This document shows, piece by piece, positions 25,084-39,560 of a stretch of DNA of 64,000 nt. The notes under the pieces are model-generated. The model was not told where the DNA came from. It worked only from the letters and a program-made list of their open reading frames with translations, and searched no databases. The stretch spans positions 2,767 through 66,766 of the forward strand of contig PLLJ01000045.1 in NCBI GenBank assembly GCA_003140935.1, in the 5' to 3' direction. Origin of the DNA: Candidatus Omnitrophota bacterium (GTDB taxonomy: Bacteria > Omnitrophota > Omnitrophia > Omnitrophales > Aquincolibacteriaceae). Position 1 is the first letter of the stretch; each line of letters begins with the position of its first letter. Position numbers and translations under genes: made by a program.

Positions 25084-25147
25084 TCTATATCCTATCCGCC
25101 AAATTTCGCGGACGGATCCGTCCACGCCGTGTGGCGGATAGGGTATA
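25084..25147. repeat. module-B hairpin repeat
   Basis: ctatatcctatccgcca pairs with tggcggatagggtatag (17-bp stem, 1 mismatch). The stem encloses the palindrome ggacggatccgtcc. Confidence 0.8.
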
Positions 25148-25169
25148 GGGTTTGTCACTCATTCCGGGG

Positions 25170-25305: not shown

Positions 25306-25307
25306 AA

Positions 25308-25370
25308 CCCCGAGTCCCGAATCCCGAGTCCCTGTATTATTGTGTCTCGCGTCCCGAGTTGCGAGTCCCC
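25308..25370. repeat. GAGTC/GGGAC heptad motif cluster (family E)
   Basis: cccgagtcccgaatcccgagtccctgtattattgtgtctcgcgtcccgagttgcgagtccccc, immediately 3' of pcm. The core gagtccctgtattattgtgtc recurs at 29448. Confidence 0.7.
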
Positions 25371-28202: not shown

Positions 28203-28240
28203 AATGAGAGCCAGTGCCGAGTTACGAGTCCCGAGTCCCC
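28203..28240. repeat. family E motif (aatgagagccag + GAGTC heptads)
   Basis: aatgagagccagtgccgagttacgagtcccgagtcccc, directly 3' of the radical SAM gene stop. Confidence 0.65.
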
Positions 28241-28246
28241 GGAATT

Positions 28247-29383
28247 CTAAAACGTAAGATACGGCCCGGACTTTTTAAGGACCTTCGTCAGTCTGCCAAG
28301 ATCGCCGAGGGACCGGATCCGGGCACCTTCGCTGCGGAAAGCCATGACGCGATCGACCATCACCTGTCCCAAACCCGGGACGCGGAGCATGCGCTGCGGA
28401 TCATCATGATTCAGGTTCACCGGGAAAAACTCCGGATGCGCATGGGCCCACATTTCTTTCGGGTCGATCGTAAGAGAAAGGTTGCCGCCGGGGTCCAGAG
28501 GGATCTCATCCGCTTGAAATCCGTATTTCCGGATAAGCCAATCGGCCTGGTAAAGCCGGTGTTCGCGGACCAGAAGATCCCGGTTGGCGGCCCCCGAGCT
28601 CTCTCCCGGAAGTTCCGGCGCGCCCGCTCCTCTTTGATAAGCGCTGAAGTAGACGCGGGAAAGCCTCAATTGCTTATACAATTTCCAGGAATACCCCAGG
28701 ATCTCCTTGTCCGTTTCCGTAGAGGCCCCCACCACGAACTGGGTGGTCTGCTTGATCCCGGCATACTCCGCTCCTTTCCCGGTCAGTTTGCTGATCAACT
28801 GAATGGGCCGGATAATGTCCCGCAGATAGTTCTTGGTCGTGCTGAGATGTCTGAAATTCGCCTCACCCGCGGTTTCGATATTTAAAGACACGGCCGTCGC
28901 CAATGAAAGACTCTGGCGGATCGCGGTGTCAGACGCTCCGGGAATGACCTTCAGGTGAATGTAACCCCGGAACTGCGACTTGCGCAAATGGAGGGCCACA
29001 CGATTGATACGCTCCATTGTGGTATCCGGGTCCTTTGCGACCGCACTGCTCAAGAAAAGGCCGCTCACCTTCCGCGCGTGATAGTAGGAAAGAAAAGTCC
29101 GGGTCAATTCCTCGGGGCTTAAACTGCATCGCCGGGCGGCCGAACCCGTCCGGAGCGGACAGTATTTACAATTGTTCACGCATTCGTTGGAAAGAAGCGT
29201 CTTGAAGAGGAAGGTCCGCCCGCCATTCGGGAGAATGACCGGATAGATCCATTTGTTTTCCTGGGACCGGCGGCGGTGTTCCTCCGCTCCTGTCGCGCAG
29301 GCGCAAGCTAGGTCATATTGAGCGTCCCGCGCCAGAATGGCGAGCTTTTCTTCCGCATTGGGACTTCTTTGAATGCCGATCAT
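28247..29383 (-). CDS. putative DNA modification/repair radical SAM protein (HhH C-terminus)
   Basis: CVNNCKYC (CxxxCxxC) and a C-terminal helix-hairpin-helix LRVPGLGQVMVDRV. It resembles the family I recall as TIGR03916. Confidence 0.75.
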   Translation of the reverse strand: MIGIQRSPNAEEKLAILARDAQYDLACACATGAEEHRRRSQENKWIYPVILPNGGRTFLFKTLLSNECVNNCKYCPLRTGSAARRCSLSPEELTRTFLSYYHARKVSGLFLSSAVAKDPDTTMERINRVALHLRKSQFRGYIHLKVIPGASDTAIRQSLSLATAVSLNIETAGEANFRHLSTTKNYLRDIIRPIQLISKLTGKGAEYAGIKQTTQFVVGASTETDKEILGYSWKLYKQLRLSRVYFSAYQRGAGAPELPGESSGAANRDLLVREHRLYQADWLIRKYGFQADEIPLDPGGNLSLTIDPKEMWAHAHPEFFPVNLNHDDPQRMLRVPGLGQVMVDRVMAFRSEGARIRSLGDLGRLTKVLKKSGPYLTF

Positions 29384-29413: not shown

Positions 29414-29480
29414 CCTACGAGTCCCTAGTCCCGTCTTTATTTATCCCGAGTCCCTGTATTATTGTGTCCCGTGTCCCAAG
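29414..29480. repeat. family E motif cluster
   Basis: cctacgagtccctagtcccgtctttatttatcccgagtccctgtattattgtgtcccgtgtcccaag. On the minus strand this gives six GGGAC units. Confidence 0.7.
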
Positions 29481-29491
29481 TGCAGCGTCAT

Positions 29492-31148: not shown

Positions 31149-31215
31149 CATATATCATATCCGCCAAATTTCACGGACGAATCCGTCCACGCTGTGTGGC
31201 GGATATGATATACGG
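31149..31215. repeat. module-B hairpin repeat
   Basis: tatatcatatccgcca pairs perfectly with tggcggatatgatata (16 bp). The stem encloses ggacgaatccgtcc. Confidence 0.8.
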
Positions 31216-31297
31216 TCTGTCACCGCCCCGCGTCTTTTGTCCTCGTGCCCCGAGCTACGAGTCCCGAGTCCCGTCTTCATTTGTCCCGATTCCCCGT

Positions 31298-31819
31298 TTA
31301 TATCTTTTTCGATTCCTGTTCCAGGCGCTTCATTTCTTCCAGGCTCGAGTTCTCTTCCCCGGCAATCTGTTGTCGGTTGTCCCCATCTTTATTCGAGTCC
31401 CGAGGAGCGAGTCCCGAGTCCCGCGGTGTTTCGTTCGAGTCCCGAGCTACGAGTCCCGAGTCCCGTGGTTTTTCGTCCGTCGTCTTGGCCTCAGGGGAAG
31501 AAAGTCCTTTTTTTGAGTCCTGTTCCAGGCGCTTCATTTCTTCCAGACTCGGGTTCTTTTCCCCGGTAGTCTGTGGTCGGTTGTCCCCATCTTTATTCGA
31601 GTCTCGAGCTACGAGTCCCGAGTCCCTGTCTTTATTCGAGTCCCGAGGAGCGAGTCCCGAGTCCCGCGGCGTTTCGTCAGCCGCAGCTTTATTCGCTCGC
31701 CGGGCCGCGATCGCCGTCCTCGCCGCCCGGATGCCAAAGATCGCGTGCGCCGGAGGCGCTCCGAGAAGAAACGTCCCCGTCACCAGTCCCGCCATCACGA
31801 TTTTAAAAGTTTTCGACAT
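31298..31819 (-). CDS. membrane-anchored/secreted repeat protein built on GGGACTC heptads
   Basis: ATG 31819 is preceded by GGGGAGGTTGGAG. The anchor is MSKTFKIVMAGLVTGTFLLGAPPAHA. Two repeats of about 68 aa follow (PRDSGL[AV][AP]RDSNKDGDNR...SLEEMKRLEQ[DE]SKK). Coding status is uncertain because the DNA is the intergenic repeat motif. Confidence 0.45.
   Translation of the reverse strand: MSKTFKIVMAGLVTGTFLLGAPPAHAIFGIRAARTAIAARRANKAAADETPRDSGLAPRDSNKDRDSGLVARDSNKDGDNRPQTTGEKNPSLEEMKRLEQDSKKGLSSPEAKTTDEKPRDSGLVARDSNETPRDSGLAPRDSNKDGDNRQQIAGEENSSLEEMKRLEQESKKI
31314..31677. repeat. tandem direct repeat, period about 204 bp, 2 copies
   Basis: The unit tcctgttccaggcgcttcatttcttccag...gtccccatctttattcgagtc...gagtcccgagtcccgcgg begins at 31314 and again at 31518. 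The second copy has an extra insert of about 38 bp. Confidence 0.85.
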
Positions 31820-31929: not shown

Positions 31930-32250
31930 CTATTGTTCTTCCCTCGACCCATTGATCTCATCGCCCCGCGAATATCGTGCGGTGTCTCCGGCCTTATAAT
32001 ATTTTGTGACGGAAATGACGAATTCTAAAAAGCCCCGCGCTTTGAGCTCATCCTTGATCTTCTCCAAAAGCTCCTGTCCCGGATCTTTCTGGCTCCATAT
32101 AAAAAAAGAGAGCGTATCTTTCCGGACGGTCAAATGGTCCACATTCTCATGGGCCCTTAAGATCTGTTCGAGAGGGTGCACATCCTCCAGACGCAGAAAA
32201 CGCGACGGGAATTTGATCTCAATGATCGTTAAAGTGTTTAAAAGTTTCAT
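31930..32250 (-). CDS. hypothetical protein (106 aa)
   Basis: I start it at MKLLNTLTIIEIKF (ATG 32250). No motif recognised. The TAGAAT of the 32-bp motif lies 7 nt upstream of the ATG, so the mRNA may be leaderless. Confidence 0.4.
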   Translation of the reverse strand: MKLLNTLTIIEIKFPSRFLRLEDVHPLEQILRAHENVDHLTVRKDTLSFFIWSQKDPGQELLEKIKDELKARGFLEFVISVTKYYKAGDTARYSRGDEINGSREEQ

Positions 32251-32254
32251 GCGT

Positions 32255-32286
32255 ACTATTCTACGAAGGAACGGCGAAGAATAAAG
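32255..32286 (-). promoter_or_regulatory. 32-bp promoter-like motif (immediately upstream of 31930-32250)
   Basis: The minus strand reads CTTTATTCTTCGCCGTTCCTTCGTAGAATAGT. It matches 31 of 32 positions of the copy at 31888. Confidence 0.45.
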
Positions 32287-32358
32287 CCTTTTGCGGATTA
32301 AAACAACAAACGGAGAAATCAAACAATGGAGTCATCCCTTCCCTCTTTTGGATGGCTG

Positions 32359-32970
32359 TCATCTTTTTTTCAGAGTAGCTTTGTCTTTATAGCTTGTACA
32401 TCGCACATAAAAATCAAATTGAATTAAAAAAAGAAGTATTGCGAACATAATTGTTAGAAATAAATTTTTCGTTAAACTTAATAATCCTATCGCTAATAAA
32501 GTCCCATTTAAAAAAGCCATTAAAAATACGAGGATCGGGAAATGATGCAAAAAACCTTCAAAATGTTTTGGCTCCTCATCGGTTATCGGCAACTTCAAGT
32601 ATTTTGTCAGATCGTCTTCCAGACTATTATCTGTGAAATACTTGCGAGTAAGGTTTGCGCTTTTTGCATAAAAAATCATCCGCATCCTAAGATTCATTAT
32701 GATCGCAAGGAAAATAACTCCTATAACAACTAAAAAAAGAACTATATAGACAAATGGCACTGGCAGATTATACAAGTCCCAAGTGATGGAGTTTATTTCT
32801 CTTGTTAATGCTAAGAATAAAGAAAGCGGAATCGCAATAACACCAAAATAATATTTAAATAATTGATAAAGAATTGTATATAAATGCTCGTAAAGCTCAT
32901 GCAAAAGCTTGTGCTCCTGCATCATAAATTCAAATTCTTGCTGAGCAGATAGTTGAGGATGTTTTTCCAT
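32359..32970 (-). CDS. 4-TM membrane protein, last gene of the AT-rich island
   Basis: 203 aa. Cytoplasmic N-terminus, then hydrophobic helices FGVIAIPLSLFLAL, VPFVYIVLFLVVIGVIFLAIIM, FPILVFLMAFLNGTLLAIGLLSL and LFLTIMFAILLFLIQF. AT-rich codon usage matches the three upstream genes. Confidence 0.6.
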   Translation of the reverse strand: MEKHPQLSAQQEFEFMMQEHKLLHELYEHLYTILYQLFKYYFGVIAIPLSLFLALTREINSITWDLYNLPVPFVYIVLFLVVIGVIFLAIIMNLRMRMIFYAKSANLTRKYFTDNSLEDDLTKYLKLPITDEEPKHFEGFLHHFPILVFLMAFLNGTLLAIGLLSLTKNLFLTIMFAILLFLIQFDFYVRCTSYKDKATLKKR

Positions 32971-32990: not shown

Positions 32991-34070
32991 TTATTTCCTT
33001 CCCAATCTTTCTAATTCCCGGTTGTATGATTCAAAGCCATGTCTTATGACTATGTTTTGCTCTCGTACTTTTCTTCGAAAAAGTTTAACTTGCCAATCCA
33101 TCCAATTCTGATGAATAAAATAATCCGCAGAAGTCTGCGCGACTCTTGGGTTATAGTTATCGAACGTTTGATTTAAAGGCCGATAACGGCAATCAGCGGT
33201 TTGAACTCCCCATTTTTTACATTCTTTAATTTTTTGCAACATTTCATAAAAATCATGTTCGAAGTTAGATATCATGAACACGTACATCTCTTTTGCTCTG
33301 TATCCGGCTTCGATCAGCATCTCGATTTGTTTTTTTATCATTTGGCGCTGGGAATATCCATGATCCCAAGCGATCCTCGGGTTAAGAAAATGTGCCTGCT
33401 TCAACAATTTCGCCAATTCTGGCGTCAAAAGCCTCCCGTCAATTCCGCACTGACTTTCAGAATAGACCGCTCGCCCATTGCACTTCGCATTCTTCAATTC
33501 ATCCAAAATGTCTTTTATATATGGATTAGCTAAAAGATTATTATCGTAAAAAATTACCCTATTGCTACAAATCTCATCTTTGATACTTTTTTTGGGAATA
33601 AATTCGGGCTCGATTTTCCAAGTTCCGCAGAATTTACATTTTCGCACACATCCTCTTGAAGAATGAACGATCTGATAATCGACATCAACTAAACTGTAAT
33701 CTGGCGCAGATGCTTCCGCCTTTGGATCCACGCCAACAAAAACTTTATCGCATTCAGATTGTTTACAGTGGTCTGGCATGAGTGATGCATAAATGCCACC
33801 GACAGTTATATGGGCCCTGGGATAATTCTTTTTGTAGAATTTCACACTATCCCACACGTATTTGGACCAATAGGTAAATAGAGAGGTAATCTTAATTTCA
33901 TCCGGACAAAACTCTCCAACCAGCTTGTCCCCTCGCACAAGTCGGACTTTATCACCATTTGCTTTGTGGTAACTGGCTAGCTTGAGTAAGCCAACAGGCA
34001 AAAAATCTCGGTGATTTTTGCTTTTTGCTGGAATCGGAAAACCTGGTTCCACTAATAATATTTTAGACAT
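32991..34070 (-). CDS. radical SAM enzyme with N-terminal B12-binding-like domain (class-B-like), AT-rich island
   Basis: SSRGCVRKCKFCGTW contains CxxxCxxC. The N-terminus ILLVEPGFP...FLPVGLLKLASYHKANGDKVRLVRGD follows the Rossmann-like pattern of B12-binding radical SAM proteins. 359 aa. Its ATG overlaps the HD gene stop (ATGTCTAA). Confidence 0.8.
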   Translation of the reverse strand: MSKILLVEPGFPIPAKSKNHRDFLPVGLLKLASYHKANGDKVRLVRGDKLVGEFCPDEIKITSLFTYWSKYVWDSVKFYKKNYPRAHITVGGIYASLMPDHCKQSECDKVFVGVDPKAEASAPDYSLVDVDYQIVHSSRGCVRKCKFCGTWKIEPEFIPKKSIKDEICSNRVIFYDNNLLANPYIKDILDELKNAKCNGRAVYSESQCGIDGRLLTPELAKLLKQAHFLNPRIAWDHGYSQRQMIKKQIEMLIEAGYRAKEMYVFMISNFEHDFYEMLQKIKECKKWGVQTADCRYRPLNQTFDNYNPRVAQTSADYFIHQNWMDWQVKLFRRKVREQNIVIRHGFESYNRELERLGRK

Positions 34071-35583
34071 TTTTATTTAACAAGGTTTCTGGTAATTTCA
34101 ATTTAATGCCATTAAATTTTATATTATTCATAACATCTTTGTACTCGGGGAGTTTTCGAGCTAATTGCTCAGGATTAGCCCATCGGACTTTAACTTCAGC
34201 GTAATTATCTTCAAAACGGAAACCATCAAAAATGGCAAATTCCGCCGTTTCTTCGAAAGAACCGTTTCTTTTCCAATCATGTATGCTATCTAAAAAAATT
34301 AATAATACGGCGAAAGGGAAACGAGAAATATTAATCGGGAAGACTTCATGCTTTCTGAGTTCTTTCCAGATTCTGCTGTCATGTAGCGCAATAGAAGTAA
34401 CCGCTGGTATAACATGGGTAACAATTAACGGCCTATTGGGACGGCTGGTCACGACTTTTGATTCGCGTAAAACTCTCACAAGAAATTGAAAACATCCTGT
34501 TACTCCATGCGATCTATGTTTTATCAAATGTTCTCGTAGTATGTCCTTGATACTAGAATCCTCATCTTCTGACATTTCGGGCGTCCAATTATTAAGGATA
34601 CGTTCGGAACAACAATGTCGAATGAAGGATTGTAATTGTATCGCAGCCTGCAAATAATCACTTTTATCAGCGATCTTTTCCAAACCAATTAGTTCTATAT
34701 CCTCATTGTACCCGTACATTTCGCCAATTAAGTTGCCTGCTTTTTGCGAAGGGTAACCAATATCATGGAATATAGAAGTAATTAACCAGATGTATTCGAT
34801 GGAAAAATCTTTTTCCCGAGGAAAAACATTTTTATAATATTTTTGAAATTCCGCATAGTATTTATCGATTATTACGCATCCCATTAACATAACTTGAAAA
34901 GAATGCAAATAATGCTCACGCGTGCCCTTCAATAAGGGCTCATAATATTTCAGCCTCAAGTAAGGTTCCGAAGAATAATGAAATCTTTTATTATCAAAGA
35001 TTTTCTTTATCGTCAAATCAACTAATTCGTATTCCTCCTCTGAGATATTTTTTGTTTTTCTTAATCGTGAATATTTCGATACAAAATCCTTTAGGATTTG
35101 GCGGTATGAAATATTGTCCAAATCGCCAACGTACGATAAAAGCTTATTTGGAACATGTCCATGCTCAGAAGCCGCCTTCTTTTTTATTAGTTGTTTATAT
35201 TTTTTTCCACTAATTGCTTTGGCTTTAATATCAAGAAGTACGGAAAGCGAAGAATTGCTTAACTGAATTAGCCCAAATCCATTATTGAAACATTCAGAAA
35301 ATATCTGATCATATTCATATTCCGGCGGAATATAATAATAAAATTCAAAATTTTTAATTTGTTTTTTTGCTTTGATGATTTCTTTAGCGCCATTCGCTGG
35401 AAAAGCATTGCTTGTATTTATATCAATTGAAATTAATTTGGACTTATAGCGGTAAAGAAGATCTGGGCTCCACGCAATACCTCTTAAAATCCGATCTCCA
35501 GCCTTTTGGGAAAGTCTTCGCCAGTTGTATTTTTTCACTAAAATTTTATTGAGTTTATCTAGAAAAATTTCTTTTTTTGACAT
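34063..35583 (-). CDS. HD-domain phosphohydrolase with uncharacterised N-terminal domain of about 230 aa, AT-rich island
   Basis: Metal-ligand series H (EHYLHSF), HD (SIFHDIGYP), H (HRSHGVTG) and D (ALHDS / LDSIHDW). 506 aa. Confidence 0.7.
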   Translation of the reverse strand: MSKKEIFLDKLNKILVKKYNWRRLSQKAGDRILRGIAWSPDLLYRYKSKLISIDINTSNAFPANGAKEIIKAKKQIKNFEFYYYIPPEYEYDQIFSECFNNGFGLIQLSNSSLSVLLDIKAKAISGKKYKQLIKKKAASEHGHVPNKLLSYVGDLDNISYRQILKDFVSKYSRLRKTKNISEEEYELVDLTIKKIFDNKRFHYSSEPYLRLKYYEPLLKGTREHYLHSFQVMLMGCVIIDKYYAEFQKYYKNVFPREKDFSIEYIWLITSIFHDIGYPSQKAGNLIGEMYGYNEDIELIGLEKIADKSDYLQAAIQLQSFIRHCCSERILNNWTPEMSEDEDSSIKDILREHLIKHRSHGVTGCFQFLVRVLRESKVVTSRPNRPLIVTHVIPAVTSIALHDSRIWKELRKHEVFPINISRFPFAVLLIFLDSIHDWKRNGSFEETAEFAIFDGFRFEDNYAEVKVRWANPEQLARKLPEYKDVMNNIKFNGIKLKLPETLLNKNV

Positions 35584-35593
35584 ATATTTGGAA

Positions 35594-36592
35594 TTATTTG
35601 TTATTTATCATTTGGTCAATGGTGTCTCGAAGTTTTTTTAAAGAAACCAAGATTCCTTCCTTTCTTTTTTTATCAGTTTCCTTCTTTAAATCAAACTCAG
35701 ATAGCTGTGAATTTAATTTATTAATATTTTTAATTAATGAACGGCTTGTTGTTTTGCTGGTCAAGGTGGGTATTTGTACTTTTTTAGTTAAGTCGTTTTT
35801 CAAGTCTTCGATTGTATACTCGATGTTTTCAATAAATCTTTTTGCTGAAGCAGCAAAAATTTCGATTTTGTCCAACTTCTTGCAAGTCATGATGGCATCG
35901 GGTATCCAAAAGAATGCGCGAGTTGTCCCAAGAAGACCTTTTTCTGCTTTCGCTATAAGCTTCCCTCTAATTTCTTCCCTCGAGTGATCCTTAAAAGTTT
36001 GGGGTATGTTTTTTTCTAACTGTTCAACAAAATTTTGTTCTATCTGCACAAGGTAACTGTCATCCAGCTTATTCTCCATAACTTTTTCTTGCGTTTCTTT
36101 ATTAAACCTCAAAAGCCGCAATCTATCTTCGACCTTTTTTCCGTCCATTTTGGTTATCTTTGCTATTTCGCCAATTAGGTCTTGATCGGTTATCGATTTG
36201 TTTTTTCTTTTTATCAAATCAACATAGAATTTTAGCGCTTGGGCTTGCGCCATCGGCTCCCATTGTTCTCTCAGCATGTGAATTTGAAACATTCGTTTTA
36301 AGCCTTCCCCTTGGGCTTTGGCTTTTTTAATGGCCAACACATGGATGGGCACGCCTTCTCGTTTAACTTTTTGAGCAGCTTTAAGCCGTCTTTCGCCATC
36401 GAGCAAAATATATTTTTTGCCTTTTTTGCTATCGTTTTTAAAAACGATCAAAGGCACCATGACTCCAAATTGCCGAATGGATTCCTCTAGTGCTATGAAA
36501 TCCTTATCCTCATAATCCTGGCCTCTGGGATTATCTGGATTGAAAGCTATATCATTAGGAGAAACATACCTGATCTGCTCGTTTTTATTCAT
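35594..36592 (-). CDS. ParB/Srx N-terminal-domain protein, first gene of the AT-rich island
   Basis: VSPNDIAFNPDNPR ... VPLIVF ... YILLDGERRLKAAQ (the ParB box II GERR arginine motif), followed by a helical, K/E-rich C-terminal half. ATG 36592 is preceded by GGAGG at a 6-nt spacing. Confidence 0.75.
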   Translation of the reverse strand: MNKNEQIRYVSPNDIAFNPDNPRGQDYEDKDFIALEESIRQFGVMVPLIVFKNDSKKGKKYILLDGERRLKAAQKVKREGVPIHVLAIKKAKAQGEGLKRMFQIHMLREQWEPMAQAQALKFYVDLIKRKNKSITDQDLIGEIAKITKMDGKKVEDRLRLLRFNKETQEKVMENKLDDSYLVQIEQNFVEQLEKNIPQTFKDHSREEIRGKLIAKAEKGLLGTTRAFFWIPDAIMTCKKLDKIEIFAASAKRFIENIEYTIEDLKNDLTKKVQIPTLTSKTTSRSLIKNINKLNSQLSEFDLKKETDKKRKEGILVSLKKLRDTIDQMINNK

Positions 36593-36761
36593 TCTATACC
36601 TCCATTTATTCCATAAATCATTTAAGATTTTTTATCTTTGTAGACGGAATCGATCCTACTTTCTTTCGTAAGTCAACGGAACACCGTCTGGGGAAAGACG
36701 TTAACTCCCCAATCTTATAGACGCACTCTTCGTTACAGGCAAGGGGAAAAAAGAAACCGCC

Positions 36762-37211
36762 TCAAAGATATAAGGCGCAGACGAAGGCGAGGGCGCCGGC
36801 GACGAGGTTGGCCAGGGTGCCGATGAGCCAGCGCTGGAGGTTATAGGCGGCGATCCGGTTCCTCGCGCTCCAATAGTACATCGGGTCGAGGCCTTCGATA
36901 TGCTCCGGCGTTTTGACGATCAACGCCCACGCCACCCATTTGGAAACGAGCTTGAACGCGAGCCACCCGACGATGATCCTGGCGGAATGCGTGGTGAACG
37001 CGATATAGAACAGGACCACTTCGAGAAGCCCGAGGACTTTGCCGAAGACCGGGCTTACCTGGCCGATGAGGAACGCCTTGGCCAGCTTCTCGTCCACGCA
37101 GTGGTAGTCTTCGCGCTTTCTCAGGAGCCTGAAGAGCCCGCGGATCGCGAACGACAGGAGCACGGCGACGGACAAACCCACCACAAAATGTTTCAGCGCC
37201 AGAAGCTGCAT
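36762..37211 (-). CDS. membrane protein, unknown function
   Basis: 149 aa, 4 hydrophobic helices. GC-rich like the backbone. The overlapping alternative-frame ORF 36841-37362 is rejected. Confidence 0.55.
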   Translation of the reverse strand: MQLLALKHFVVGLSVAVLLSFAIRGLFRLLRKREDYHCVDEKLAKAFLIGQVSPVFGKVLGLLEVVLFYIAFTTHSARIIVGWLAFKLVSKWVAWALIVKTPEHIEGLDPMYYWSARNRIAAYNLQRWLIGTLANLVAGALAFVCALYL

Positions 37212-37251: not shown

Positions 37252-37429
37252 ACTAGTACTGTTCTCCATTTGATTTTCCGCCACAATTCTTCGGACGGAT
37301 CCGTCCTTTGGCGGATAGGGGTTAACAGCACTTGTTCTCAAAAAAAACTTAAAGGTTAACAAGTGCTGTCCAAGTCGCCCTTAATAAAATAAAAACGAAG
37401 ACTTGGGCCGTACTGTGTACCGCATACCC
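37252..37429. repeat. composite intergenic element (module B, 11-bp-stem hairpin, module A)
   Basis: ccgccacaattcttcggacggatccgtcctttggcgg. Then cagcacttgtt-(21)-aacaagtgctg. Then gtccaagtc-(23)-gacttgggc. Both termini match those of 52667-52845 in inverted orientation. Confidence 0.85.
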
Positions 37430-38207: not shown

Positions 38208-39560
38208 TCACCTTTGCATACGAACAGCGTGCCCTTTTTCCAGGAGTTCCTGGTTCACGTAAGTCCCGCCGGCCCAAATGTCGACCAGGTACCTGTCGTA
38301 TTTGTCGGACTTGACGGTCTTGATGAGGATTTGCGCGCTGATTTTTCCATCCGCCATTTTCAACATCTTCTCCATGGCTTCTTTCGCTTCTTTTCCTTCC
38401 TTGCTCACGAGCTCGGGGGCGTCGAGACCGCGCAGGCGCAGGGTCTGCACGCTGCGCACGCCGAAGCCCAGATCGACCACCGCTTCGATCGTGTCGCCGT
38501 CGAGAATGCGGAACACCCAGGCGCGGTAAGTAAAAAGGTCGGCGGAGGTCCGTTTCGAGAGTTTGATCAGATCCGAGGGCGCGGAACCCGCTCCCGGGAA
38601 CGCGGGCATCACTTCGATGATCGCCCCTTCCTTGAAACGGAGGTCCCGGGACGTCCGGTAATAATTGGAGAACCCGAGGTCGATCACCGCCTTGCCGGTC
38701 TCGGGGCCCGCGGCGGCTTTGACGATCTTATAAGTCCCGGGCTTCCCCGGCTTGGCCGTGAGCGGGGTTTCTTTCACCGGCGCCGGCGCCTCATTTTTCG
38801 CGGCCTTGCGCTTTTTCACTTCTTCACGTACCTGGTCGCGGGTCCAGTTTTCTTTTTCAGCCATGGCCGCGACCTCGTCTTGCTCCTTGATATCATTCAG
38901 CGAAAGAAGCTCCTCATAATGGCTCCAGCTCAATTTTCCCGCGGGCGGGGAAATCGGGTAATCGCGGGCGAACTGAAGCATGGCGTACAGCTGGGTCTCG
39001 CTGATGGGCAAGTCTCCGGACAATCTTAAGATCACCTGCTTGCCGTAATCCGCGCGCTCCTTGTGCTGGAGCACGTGCTCGTCGATCAGTTTGCCGATCT
39101 CCCACGCCTCGCGGACTTTTTCCTGTTGGGCGGCCTGCTCCACACGGGCCTCGCTGGCCGCGTGGGCCTTGCGAATGGCGGCGACGAGCTGCTCGTAAGT
39201 TCCAACCTGGGTCGCGAGCACTGTAGACGATGGTCCCAAATCGTCACCGGGCCGTGCCTGTTCACGGCGCTCTTCAGCCGTCCCTGTGGGACTGGGAACA
39301 GGCGAGGTCTGGACCTGCGGCGCGGGCACTGTAGACGATTGTCCCAGATCGTCACTGTGCCGTGCCTGTTCACTGGGAACAGGTGCGGGGACCGGCGGGT
39401 TCATCGAAGGGACCTGCCCTGAGCTTGCCGAAGGGGCCTGCGAAGACGAGGACTTCAAGTCCCCGCGAGCGTGCTGAGGAACCGGGTCCTCAGCCTGCAA
39501 GGACGGGGATATCCAGAGGAGCGTGAGGAAAATACCGAGGGTGATCGTCGTCGTCTTCAT
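38208..39560 (-). CDS. secreted fusion protein: DUF1016-N-like helical domain + staphylococcal-nuclease (SNase)-like domain
   Basis: Signal peptide MKTTTITLGIFLTLLWISPSLQA. P/S-rich duplicated linker. Central EAWEIGKLIDEHVLQHKERADYGKQVILRLSGDL...LSWSHY resembles the YhcG/DUF1016 N-terminal region. The C-terminus ILDGDTIEAV...LRGLDAPE...DKYDRYLVD is thermonuclease-like. Confidence 0.65.
   Translation of the reverse strand: MKTTTITLGIFLTLLWISPSLQAEDPVPQHARGDLKSSSSQAPSASSGQVPSMNPPVPAPVPSEQARHSDDLGQSSTVPAPQVQTSPVPSPTGTAEERREQARPGDDLGPSSTVLATQVGTYEQLVAAIRKAHAASEARVEQAAQQEKVREAWEIGKLIDEHVLQHKERADYGKQVILRLSGDLPISETQLYAMLQFARDYPISPPAGKLSWSHYEELLSLNDIKEQDEVAAMAEKENWTRDQVREEVKKRKAAKNEAPAPVKETPLTAKPGKPGTYKIVKAAAGPETGKAVIDLGFSNYYRTSRDLRFKEGAIIEVMPAFPGAGSAPSDLIKLSKRTSADLFTYRAWVFRILDGDTIEAVVDLGFGVRSVQTLRLRGLDAPELVSKEGKEAKEAMEKMLKMADGKISAQILIKTVKSDKYDRYLVDIWAGGTYVNQELLEKGHAVRMQR

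Follow-up and report, generated by a model that had tools for sequence, protein, structure and literature searches.

A three-gene cassette ending in a radical SAM gene

The 64,000-nucleotide stretch of contig PLLJ01000045.1 from a Candidatus Omnitrophota bacterium (assembly GCA_003140935.1) that was analysed here, in the following referred to as the window, carries a mobile cassette of three genes in the order ParB gene, gene of a 506-residue HD-like protein, and gene of a short radical S-adenosylmethionine (SAM) protein. The cassette sits on an island of low GC content (0.29–0.43, about 32.0 to 36.75 kb) between flanks of 0.55–0.60. The third gene is the subject of this analysis, and the larger finding is that its family represents a shared module of many defence systems.

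The radical SAM gene (32991..34070, minus strand, as are all positions given for its product) encodes a protein of 359 residues with a class-B-type two-domain fold and forms the conserved 3' end of the cassette. It is a real gene, as at least 2,400 database proteins match it (best E 6e-195), and the members of this family, 50–78% identical, are found across bacteria and archaea. A Rossmann-like domain of the B12-binding type (residues 1–125; 33696..34070), which contains the sequence TSLFTYW (33867..33887) and a glycine pair (G91-G92; 33795..33800), precedes the radical SAM core (residues 126–300; 33171..33695). The core has the partial (beta/alpha) TIM-barrel fold of the superfamily, provides the ligands of the [4Fe-4S] cluster with the CxxxCxxC motif CVRKCKFC (residues 141–148; 33627..33650), and includes a conserved DNN (33537..33545). 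Where TsrM and TokK have large C-terminal domains, there is only a short basic tail (residues 301–359; 32994..33170) with an isoelectric point (pI) of about 10, and the whole protein is basic as well (pI 9.2). A preliminary description of the locus had already noted the short radical SAM gene inside the island, the N-terminal segment starting with ILLVEPGFP, the cysteine motif about 140 residues further on, and a ParB-domain gene two genes upstream, all of which we found as described. It had also staked its class B interpretation on the N-terminal domain having a B12-binding-type Rossmann fold. With this domain placed N-terminally to the core, as in class B enzymes, the structural part of that interpretation stands, while its ideas of cobalamin use and of cytidylylated substrates are not established.

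Conservation was assessed with 41 close relatives, which also served as a profile, and with a wider alignment of 82 relatives down to about 30% identity. The CxxxCxxC motif is invariant in the close relatives and was seen in 81 of the 82 wider ones, where TSLFT[YW], G91-G92, RGC...C..C, DNN, D211, D236, and N269 are nearly universal. With the GG in 81 of the 82 sequences and TSLFT in most of them, the protein has a remnant of the S/T-x-L ... G-G cobalamin-binding motif, arranged as T/S-x-L...x26...GG (T62-S63-L64, G91-G92), a spacing that we take to be that of the methionine synthase cobalamin motif. The Pfam scores of the window protein are below the gathering cut-offs for PF04055 (27.6 versus 29.5 bits) and for the B12-binding family PF02310 (18 versus 32.1 bits); many close homologues have a precomputed PF04055 match, and one 54% identical relative (P0121) exceeds the PF02310 threshold with 41.5 bits. 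NCBIfam and PADLOC contain no model specific to the protein, and neither the single sequence nor the 41-sequence profile matched anything relevant when searched against PDB sequences. We considered the extra cysteines C107, C208, C284, and C294, invariant in the close subfamily, as ligands of an auxiliary iron–sulfur cluster, and rejected this as a family feature because they are not kept among the 82 relatives. In conclusion, the fold identifies the protein as a minimal radical SAM enzyme of the class B type, in which a Rossmann-like domain is followed by the [4Fe-4S]/SAM core. Three relatives (P0226, P0227, P0231) carry interior inteins with Hint, LAGLIDADG, or HNH domains, which in P0226 and P0227 begin directly behind the CxxxCxxC region; proteins with functions other than replication and nucleotide metabolism rarely contain inteins.

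The first cassette gene (35594..36592, minus strand) encodes a 332-residue ParB_N-domain protein (Pfam ParB_N E 1.6e-12; NCBIfam parB_part E 1.7e-12) with a GERRLKAA box at residues 66–73 (36374..36397, minus strand), and it clusters with the ParB-HEPN partners found at other loci. After a short gap follows the gene of the 506-residue partner (34063..35583, minus strand), whose stop overlaps the start of the radical SAM gene by 8 nt (ATGTCTAA). This partner belongs to a rare family with 11 database matches and no Pfam match. The residues H224/H227, H273-D274, H359, H401-D402, D432, and H435-D436 are invariant in its HD-like helical region, and this H...HD...H...HD...D...HD pattern suggests an HD phosphohydrolase. 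The HD assignment was made from these motifs alone, as the AlphaFold2 model was good only for an N-terminal alpha/beta domain (residues 1–125, confident; overall pLDDT score 52), and a fold search with it gave no significant match, only weak nuclease-like hints with all E values above 0.001. All three cassette genes are kept together in five independent contexts whose flanks are unrelated: (i) the window, which is part of metagenomic contigs of up to 967 kb with arginine- and lysine-biosynthesis-type flanking genes, (ii) a region of Velamenicoccus archaeovorus that also encodes TraG and type IV secretion proteins, (iii) locus L098, (iv) loci L099/L100 beside a Type I restriction–modification system, AbiEii, and a HEPN/nucleotidyltransferase pair, and (v) locus L101.

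Recurrent operons of the family

A scan with one genome per species yielded 144 loci, and for 80 of these, from bacteria and archaea and mostly from metagenome-assembled genomes of lineages known as anaerobes, open reading frames were called and the neighbouring proteins clustered. In these 80 species-level loci, the radical SAM gene is normally the last gene of recurrent defence-type operons, and start–stop overlaps of 4–8 nt are common. MORC-type GHKL ATPases, which are related to the BbrUII/HgiDII restriction enzyme family (E 4e-32), are the partners at 20 of the 80 loci, where they either stand alone with a C-terminal Rx4H HEPN-like domain or are followed by a protein of about 330 residues. 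ParB partners (16/80) are fused to an Rx4H HEPN-like domain or, at four loci, to a PD-(D/E)xK-like domain, or they occur together with the 506-residue protein. At the four loci (L043, L054, L064, L069), a PD-(D/E)xK-type motif (LDFVLKDHKIIVETKYV) at the ParB C-terminus replaces the Rx4H HEPN-like domain, and the effector domain is thus swapped on the same ParB scaffold.

Pbe sets, present at 13 of the 80 loci, combine PbeA (E 3e-225) and PbeC (E 9e-130) with a small Dnd-associated-like protein, and at some loci of Methanobrevibacter and Methanosphaera their genes are divergent from the radical SAM gene. One Methanobrevibacter locus (L056, 304-16070) has a full PbeA–PbeC–small protein set on each side of the radical SAM gene, on the opposite strand, and so two paralogous Pbe modules surround one radical SAM gene. 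DISARM-like sets (10/80; examples are on contigs JACUTP010000010.1 and DYGR01000007.1) comprise DrmA (E 2e-91), a DrmB-family protein (E 1e-18), a phospholipase D (PLD)-type protein (PLDc_2), and DrmE_C, and at five loci a ParB protein, a small protein, a SNF2 helicase, and a second ParB-like protein precede the gene. Other partners are DGQHR/DndB proteins fused to HEPN, HerA-type ATPases, and another ABC ATPase. Seventeen loci were left unclassified, ten of them with less than 1 kb of upstream sequence.

More distant relatives (29% identity) are encoded on Rhizobium and Agrobacterium plasmids in operons of this kind, made up of helicase, ParB, DGQHR, radical SAM, and ATPase genes. An example is the 545-residue relative of a Rhizobium sophoriradicis plasmid (L103, NZ_CP104153.1 88763-97028; 29% identity) with its helicase, ParB, DGQHR protein, and ATPases; as this is an aerobic cultured organism, the wider family is not confined to anaerobes. 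A homologue with 35% identity lies in the lysogeny/regulation region of Marinitoga camini virus 1, a temperate isolate (L102, KP836355.1 37383-41209), where it is convergent with HerA and a NurA-like exonuclease.

A possible self-marking role and its alternatives

The link between the radical SAM gene and its partners was also sampled from the other side, by searching metagenomes with the ParB-HEPN partner and thus independently of the radical SAM gene. Where enough downstream sequence was available, 21 of 22 full-length ParB-HEPN genes were followed by the radical SAM gene, in 20 cases within 0–18 nt, and the gene also follows 22 of 25 ParB-N-only matches having 3 kb downstream. It follows the genes of the 506-residue family in five of five independent contexts. 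The ParB-type partners therefore depend on the radical SAM gene almost obligatorily, as expected for a restriction-modification-like system, in which a restriction or toxic partner does not occur without its modifier. This dependence is one-sided. In such systems, orphan modifiers can also be expected in phages, and four viral contigs (L088–L091) indeed carry the radical SAM gene without a partner, beside primase, terminase/portal, or cytosine-5 (Dcm) methylase genes; these solitary genes resemble the orphan methylases of phages. A Dcm gene adjoins the radical SAM gene in viral L091 (E 4e-79) and in Methanobrevibacter L041 (E 3e-64), and in a single sequence (P0208) the two are fused (PF00145 E 5e-57). 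A separate observation concerns more than 50 clusters (P0282–P0338) of tandem fusions of two cytosine-5 DNA methylase domains with 700–830 residues.

DISARM and Pbe systems are known with a modification enzyme. In class 2 DISARM, the modification partner is a methylase. In Pbe (CxC-ABC/DndE) systems, cytosine methylases or phosphorothioation (PT) genes have this role (PMC10853773). In the 23 DISARM-type and Pbe-type loci, neither a methylase nor a Dnd family recurs among the 105 proteins encoded in the flanks, and tblastn searches for methylases of the Dcm, HsdM/Eco57I, and Dam types gave no match within the retrieved sequence, although such methylases were found near 11 other loci. It is the radical SAM gene that takes the modification-partner slot in the DISARM-like and Pbe loci. 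Furthermore, radical SAM proteins that are more than 70% identical pair with MORC, ParB-506, ParB-HEPN, and ParB-SNF2 partners, and the role of the protein is therefore independent of any one partner.

As the gene ends many different anti-phage operons and stands alone in phages, a protective DNA mark is the most likely product of the enzyme. We consider the chances about even that the radical SAM gene encodes a DNA self-marking enzyme, which would act as the modification component in a defence cassette of the restriction-modification-like kind. The fold and motifs and the basic character of the protein also speak for this reading. For the cassette of the window, we propose that ParB loads onto DNA or scans it and that the effector is the 506-residue protein with its possibly nuclease-like N-terminal domain and its HD-like region. 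Host DNA would receive a covalent mark from the radical SAM enzyme, for example by a C-methylation beyond the reach of ordinary SAM methyltransferases, and this mark would keep the effector off the host. In a more specific form, to which we give somewhat less than an even chance, a probably cobalamin-dependent radical enzyme installs a new covalent DNA modification as a portable "self" label for unrelated restriction modules. Candidate modifications would be a methylated unactivated carbon on base or sugar, or a further alkylation of 5-methylcytosine. Such a label would mainly serve anaerobic bacteria and archaea and might be read by DISARM-like, Pbe, MORC, ParB-nuclease, and HerA modules, and phages would have taken up the gene as a disguise for their own DNA.

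Several observations weigh against this self-marking proposal, for which the whole case is drawn from context. The mean column identity of the 41 close relatives is 70% and uniform, with variation only in short loops and the C-terminal tail, and no variable target-recognition region of the kind expected in restriction-modification-like modifiers was seen in the alignment. A variable region is not required of every DNA modifier, but such uniform conservation is atypical of sequence-specific ones, and a small universal substrate fits it at least as well as DNA does. Of the enzymes with the closest solved structures, AprD4 has a sugar and MgmA has proteins as substrate. A search for further fusions of Dcm and radical SAM domains gave only tandem double-Dcm proteins, so that P0208 is a singleton. 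In most DISARM-type loci, the 10-kb flanks end just upstream of drmA, so that a methylase may lie further upstream. Neither a cobalamin riboswitch nor any other Rfam family was matched in the 64-kb window. The family is present in bacteria of the candidate phyla radiation (CPR) and in DPANN archaea, which to our knowledge generally cannot, or only rarely, make cobalamin. Finally, HEPN domains, as in the HEPN-like partners, are usually RNases.

The last point leads to an RNA-modifying immunity factor, which would modify a tRNA or rRNA position and thereby block the partner HEPN RNase from cutting host RNA. We regard this as rather unlikely, as no HEPN domain is present in the DISARM-like, Pbe, ParB-nuclease, ParB-SNF2, and HerA sets or in the 506-residue protein of the window, the family has neither the N-terminal cysteine triad nor a TRAM domain, and the Dcm links point to DNA. 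A nucleotide-directed effector is unlikely too, though less so: the enzyme would convert a free NTP or dNTP to a toxic or signalling analogue, for example by a radical dehydration as known from viperin and AprD4, and the partners would sense infection. The enzyme could also be a protein maturase that modifies its upstream partner, in the way MgmA and Mmp10 methylate methyl-coenzyme M reductase. However, the proteins encoded immediately upstream are mutually unrelated (506-residue protein, c7/c8, HEPN fusions, PbeD-like, DrmE, ParB-like), nearly identical radical SAM proteins have differing upstream partners, and the phage copies have none. Partner shuffling thus disfavours a partner-specific maturase, and we consider this option very unlikely. 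Unrelated genes do accumulate in defence islands, and some loci, such as L063, have metabolic neighbours, so that the gene might be a passenger that has no functional tie to its neighbours and is present in defence islands by coincidence. This is highly improbable, and the linkage statistics already contradict it, as the gene abuts or overlaps a partner on the same strand in most classified loci, the linkage sampled from the partner side is 21 of 22, and five architectures recur in unrelated phyla.

For the self-marking proposal, the use of cobalamin is a question of its own. The N-terminal domain is probably corrinoid-binding, and the family likely uses cobalamin. The radical SAM enzyme AprD4 has no cobalamin bound despite a related domain (2026 review PMC12931638), and therefore a class-B-type fold alone is insufficient to prove cobalamin binding.

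If the proposal is correct, it has wider implications. Prokaryotic DNA is known to be self-marked by ordinary methylation, phosphorothioation, or 7-deazaguanine, and a marker of the radical SAM/B12 type would represent a new chemical class of epigenetic mark as well as a new activity for radical SAM enzymes, the largest enzyme superfamily. It would also explain self/non-self discrimination by DISARM-like and Pbe-like operons without methylase or Dnd genes. The family is widespread in uncultured, mostly anaerobic organisms—methanogens, anaerobic methanotrophic (ANME) archaea, CPR bacteria, DPANN and Asgard archaea—and an unrecognised DNA mark could affect the sequencing signal and the genetic tractability of these carriers. 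Carriers are available in culture: Rhizobium and Agrobacterium with their plasmids (Rhizobium sophoriradicis CC511, which represents a tractable model, and Agrobacterium sp. S7/73), Marinitoga camini virus 1 (lysogens of Marinitoga camini 1197), Methanobrevibacter strains, and an enrichment of Velamenicoccus archaeovorus.

Island surroundings and comparison with known systems

Two further small genes belong to the island. A 203-residue membrane protein with hydrophobic segments and no family match is encoded inside the island (32359..32970, minus strand), and a 130-residue protein at its edge (31930..32322, minus strand). Neither qualified as a conserved partner: other genes take the place of the former in L001, L096, L098, L099, and L101, and the latter is not conserved outside the lineage of the window. 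A terminator-like hairpin that ends the preceding host gene (36758..36777, minus strand) marks the upstream border of the island. No tRNA gene was found in the window, no integrase was seen adjoining the island, and a promoter scan did no better than with shuffled sequence. Three copies of a palindromic element of about 73 nt, TATATC.TATCCGCCAAATTTC.CGGACG.ATCCGTCCACGC.GTGTGGCGGATA..., occur at a spacing of about 6.1 kb (25086-25158, 31151-31223, and, partial, 37285-37320). The low-GC island lies between the second copy and the partial third one, and the element could be a host repeat of the repetitive extragenic palindromic (REP) type or be related to the insertion of the island. A GAGTCCCGAGTCCC-rich repeat has dispersed and tandem copies at 31229-31677, 25306-25369, 28213-28239, and 29415-29481; its block at 31.2–31.7 kb, immediately outside the island, is overlapped on both strands by long open reading frames for repetitive peptides. 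Also outside the island and of normal GC content is a second, unrelated radical SAM gene (28247-29383, minus strand; 378 residues) with a helix-hairpin-helix tail, which matches TIGR03916, "putative DNA modification/repair radical SAM protein" (E 4e-83, below the cut-off of that model). About 1.6 kb upstream of the cassette, a 450-residue protein (38208-39560, minus strand) has DUF1016_N and SNase domains according to precomputed Pfam data of an identical contig, and its gene contains an internal 61-nt direct repeat with a spacing of 108 nt (39205-39373).

Among the radical SAM enzymes of known structure, the best match is AprD4 (6FD2), a 1,2-diol dehydratase with a B12-like domain and 14% identity. 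AprD4 acts on an aminoglycoside and belongs to a biosynthetic cluster. In the family described here, the S/TxL...GG cofactor motif is retained in nearly all members. The fold is also like that of the class I structural group of class B methyltransferases, MgmA/QCMT (9CCB), TsrM (6WTE), CysS (9N1B), and TokK (7KDX), to which there is no detectable sequence similarity, even by profile. Compared to these methyltransferases, the 359-residue protein is shorter and lacks the substrate-binding C-terminal domain, and its context is defence instead of metabolism or natural products. Identity with a methylthiotransferase (MiaB/RimO) was rejected, as there is no family-wide N-terminal cysteine triad and no TRAM match. 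In MiaB and RimO, the related N-terminal domain houses an iron–sulfur cluster; C102 and C107 of the N-terminal domain are restricted to the subfamily of the window, and the family cannot house such a cluster because the cysteines are absent. Prokaryotic viperins and OpnA of Ophion are likewise radical SAM enzymes in anti-phage systems. A viperin-like identity was dismissed, as the protein does not have a single-domain core closely similar to viperin, and Ophion, the published radical SAM defence system, is viperin-like and unrelated.

That the superfamily is able to install DNA modifications is known from gp53 of phage M6, a radical SAM isomerase that takes part in thymidine hypermodification and has replicated DNA as its target (PMC8989533), and this enzyme, which is of the spore-photoproduct lyase (SPL) type, was the only radical SAM installer of a DNA modification found in the literature. 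In contrast to the present family, gp53 lacks a Rossmann-like N-terminal domain, acts on 5-hydroxymethyldeoxyuridine (5-hmdU) in a multi-enzyme phage pathway, and is a phage pathway enzyme and not a cellular self-marking gene. In literature full texts, we found no link of the radical SAM family described here to defence or DNA modification; subscription journals may hold prior work.

With respect to whole systems, DISARM class 2 consists of DrmA, DrmB, DrmC, DrmE, and the DrmMII cytosine methylase. The ten DISARM-like loci likewise have DrmA-like, DrmB-family, PLD (DrmC-like), and DrmE-type genes in one operon, but the methylase is absent within the retrieved sequence, and the radical SAM gene closes the operon instead. 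These related loci thus have the core genes of the DISARM definition and, in that sequence, not its DNA methyltransferase, and the window itself is not a DISARM locus. In the 13 Pbe loci, homologues of PbeA and PbeC and the small Dnd-associated-like protein are encoded ahead of the radical SAM gene or opposite to it, and the likeness to Dnd and Dpd systems lies in ParB- and DGQHR-family proteins (cf. DndB/DpdB) that accompany a DNA-modification enzyme. In Pbe, Dnd, and Dpd systems, the modification is achieved by phosphorothioation genes, cytosine methylases, or 7-deazaguanine insertion, none of which was found in the DISARM-type and Pbe-type loci studied here. Modification-based discrimination between self and non-self is itself known, and it is the type of modifying enzyme that would be new.
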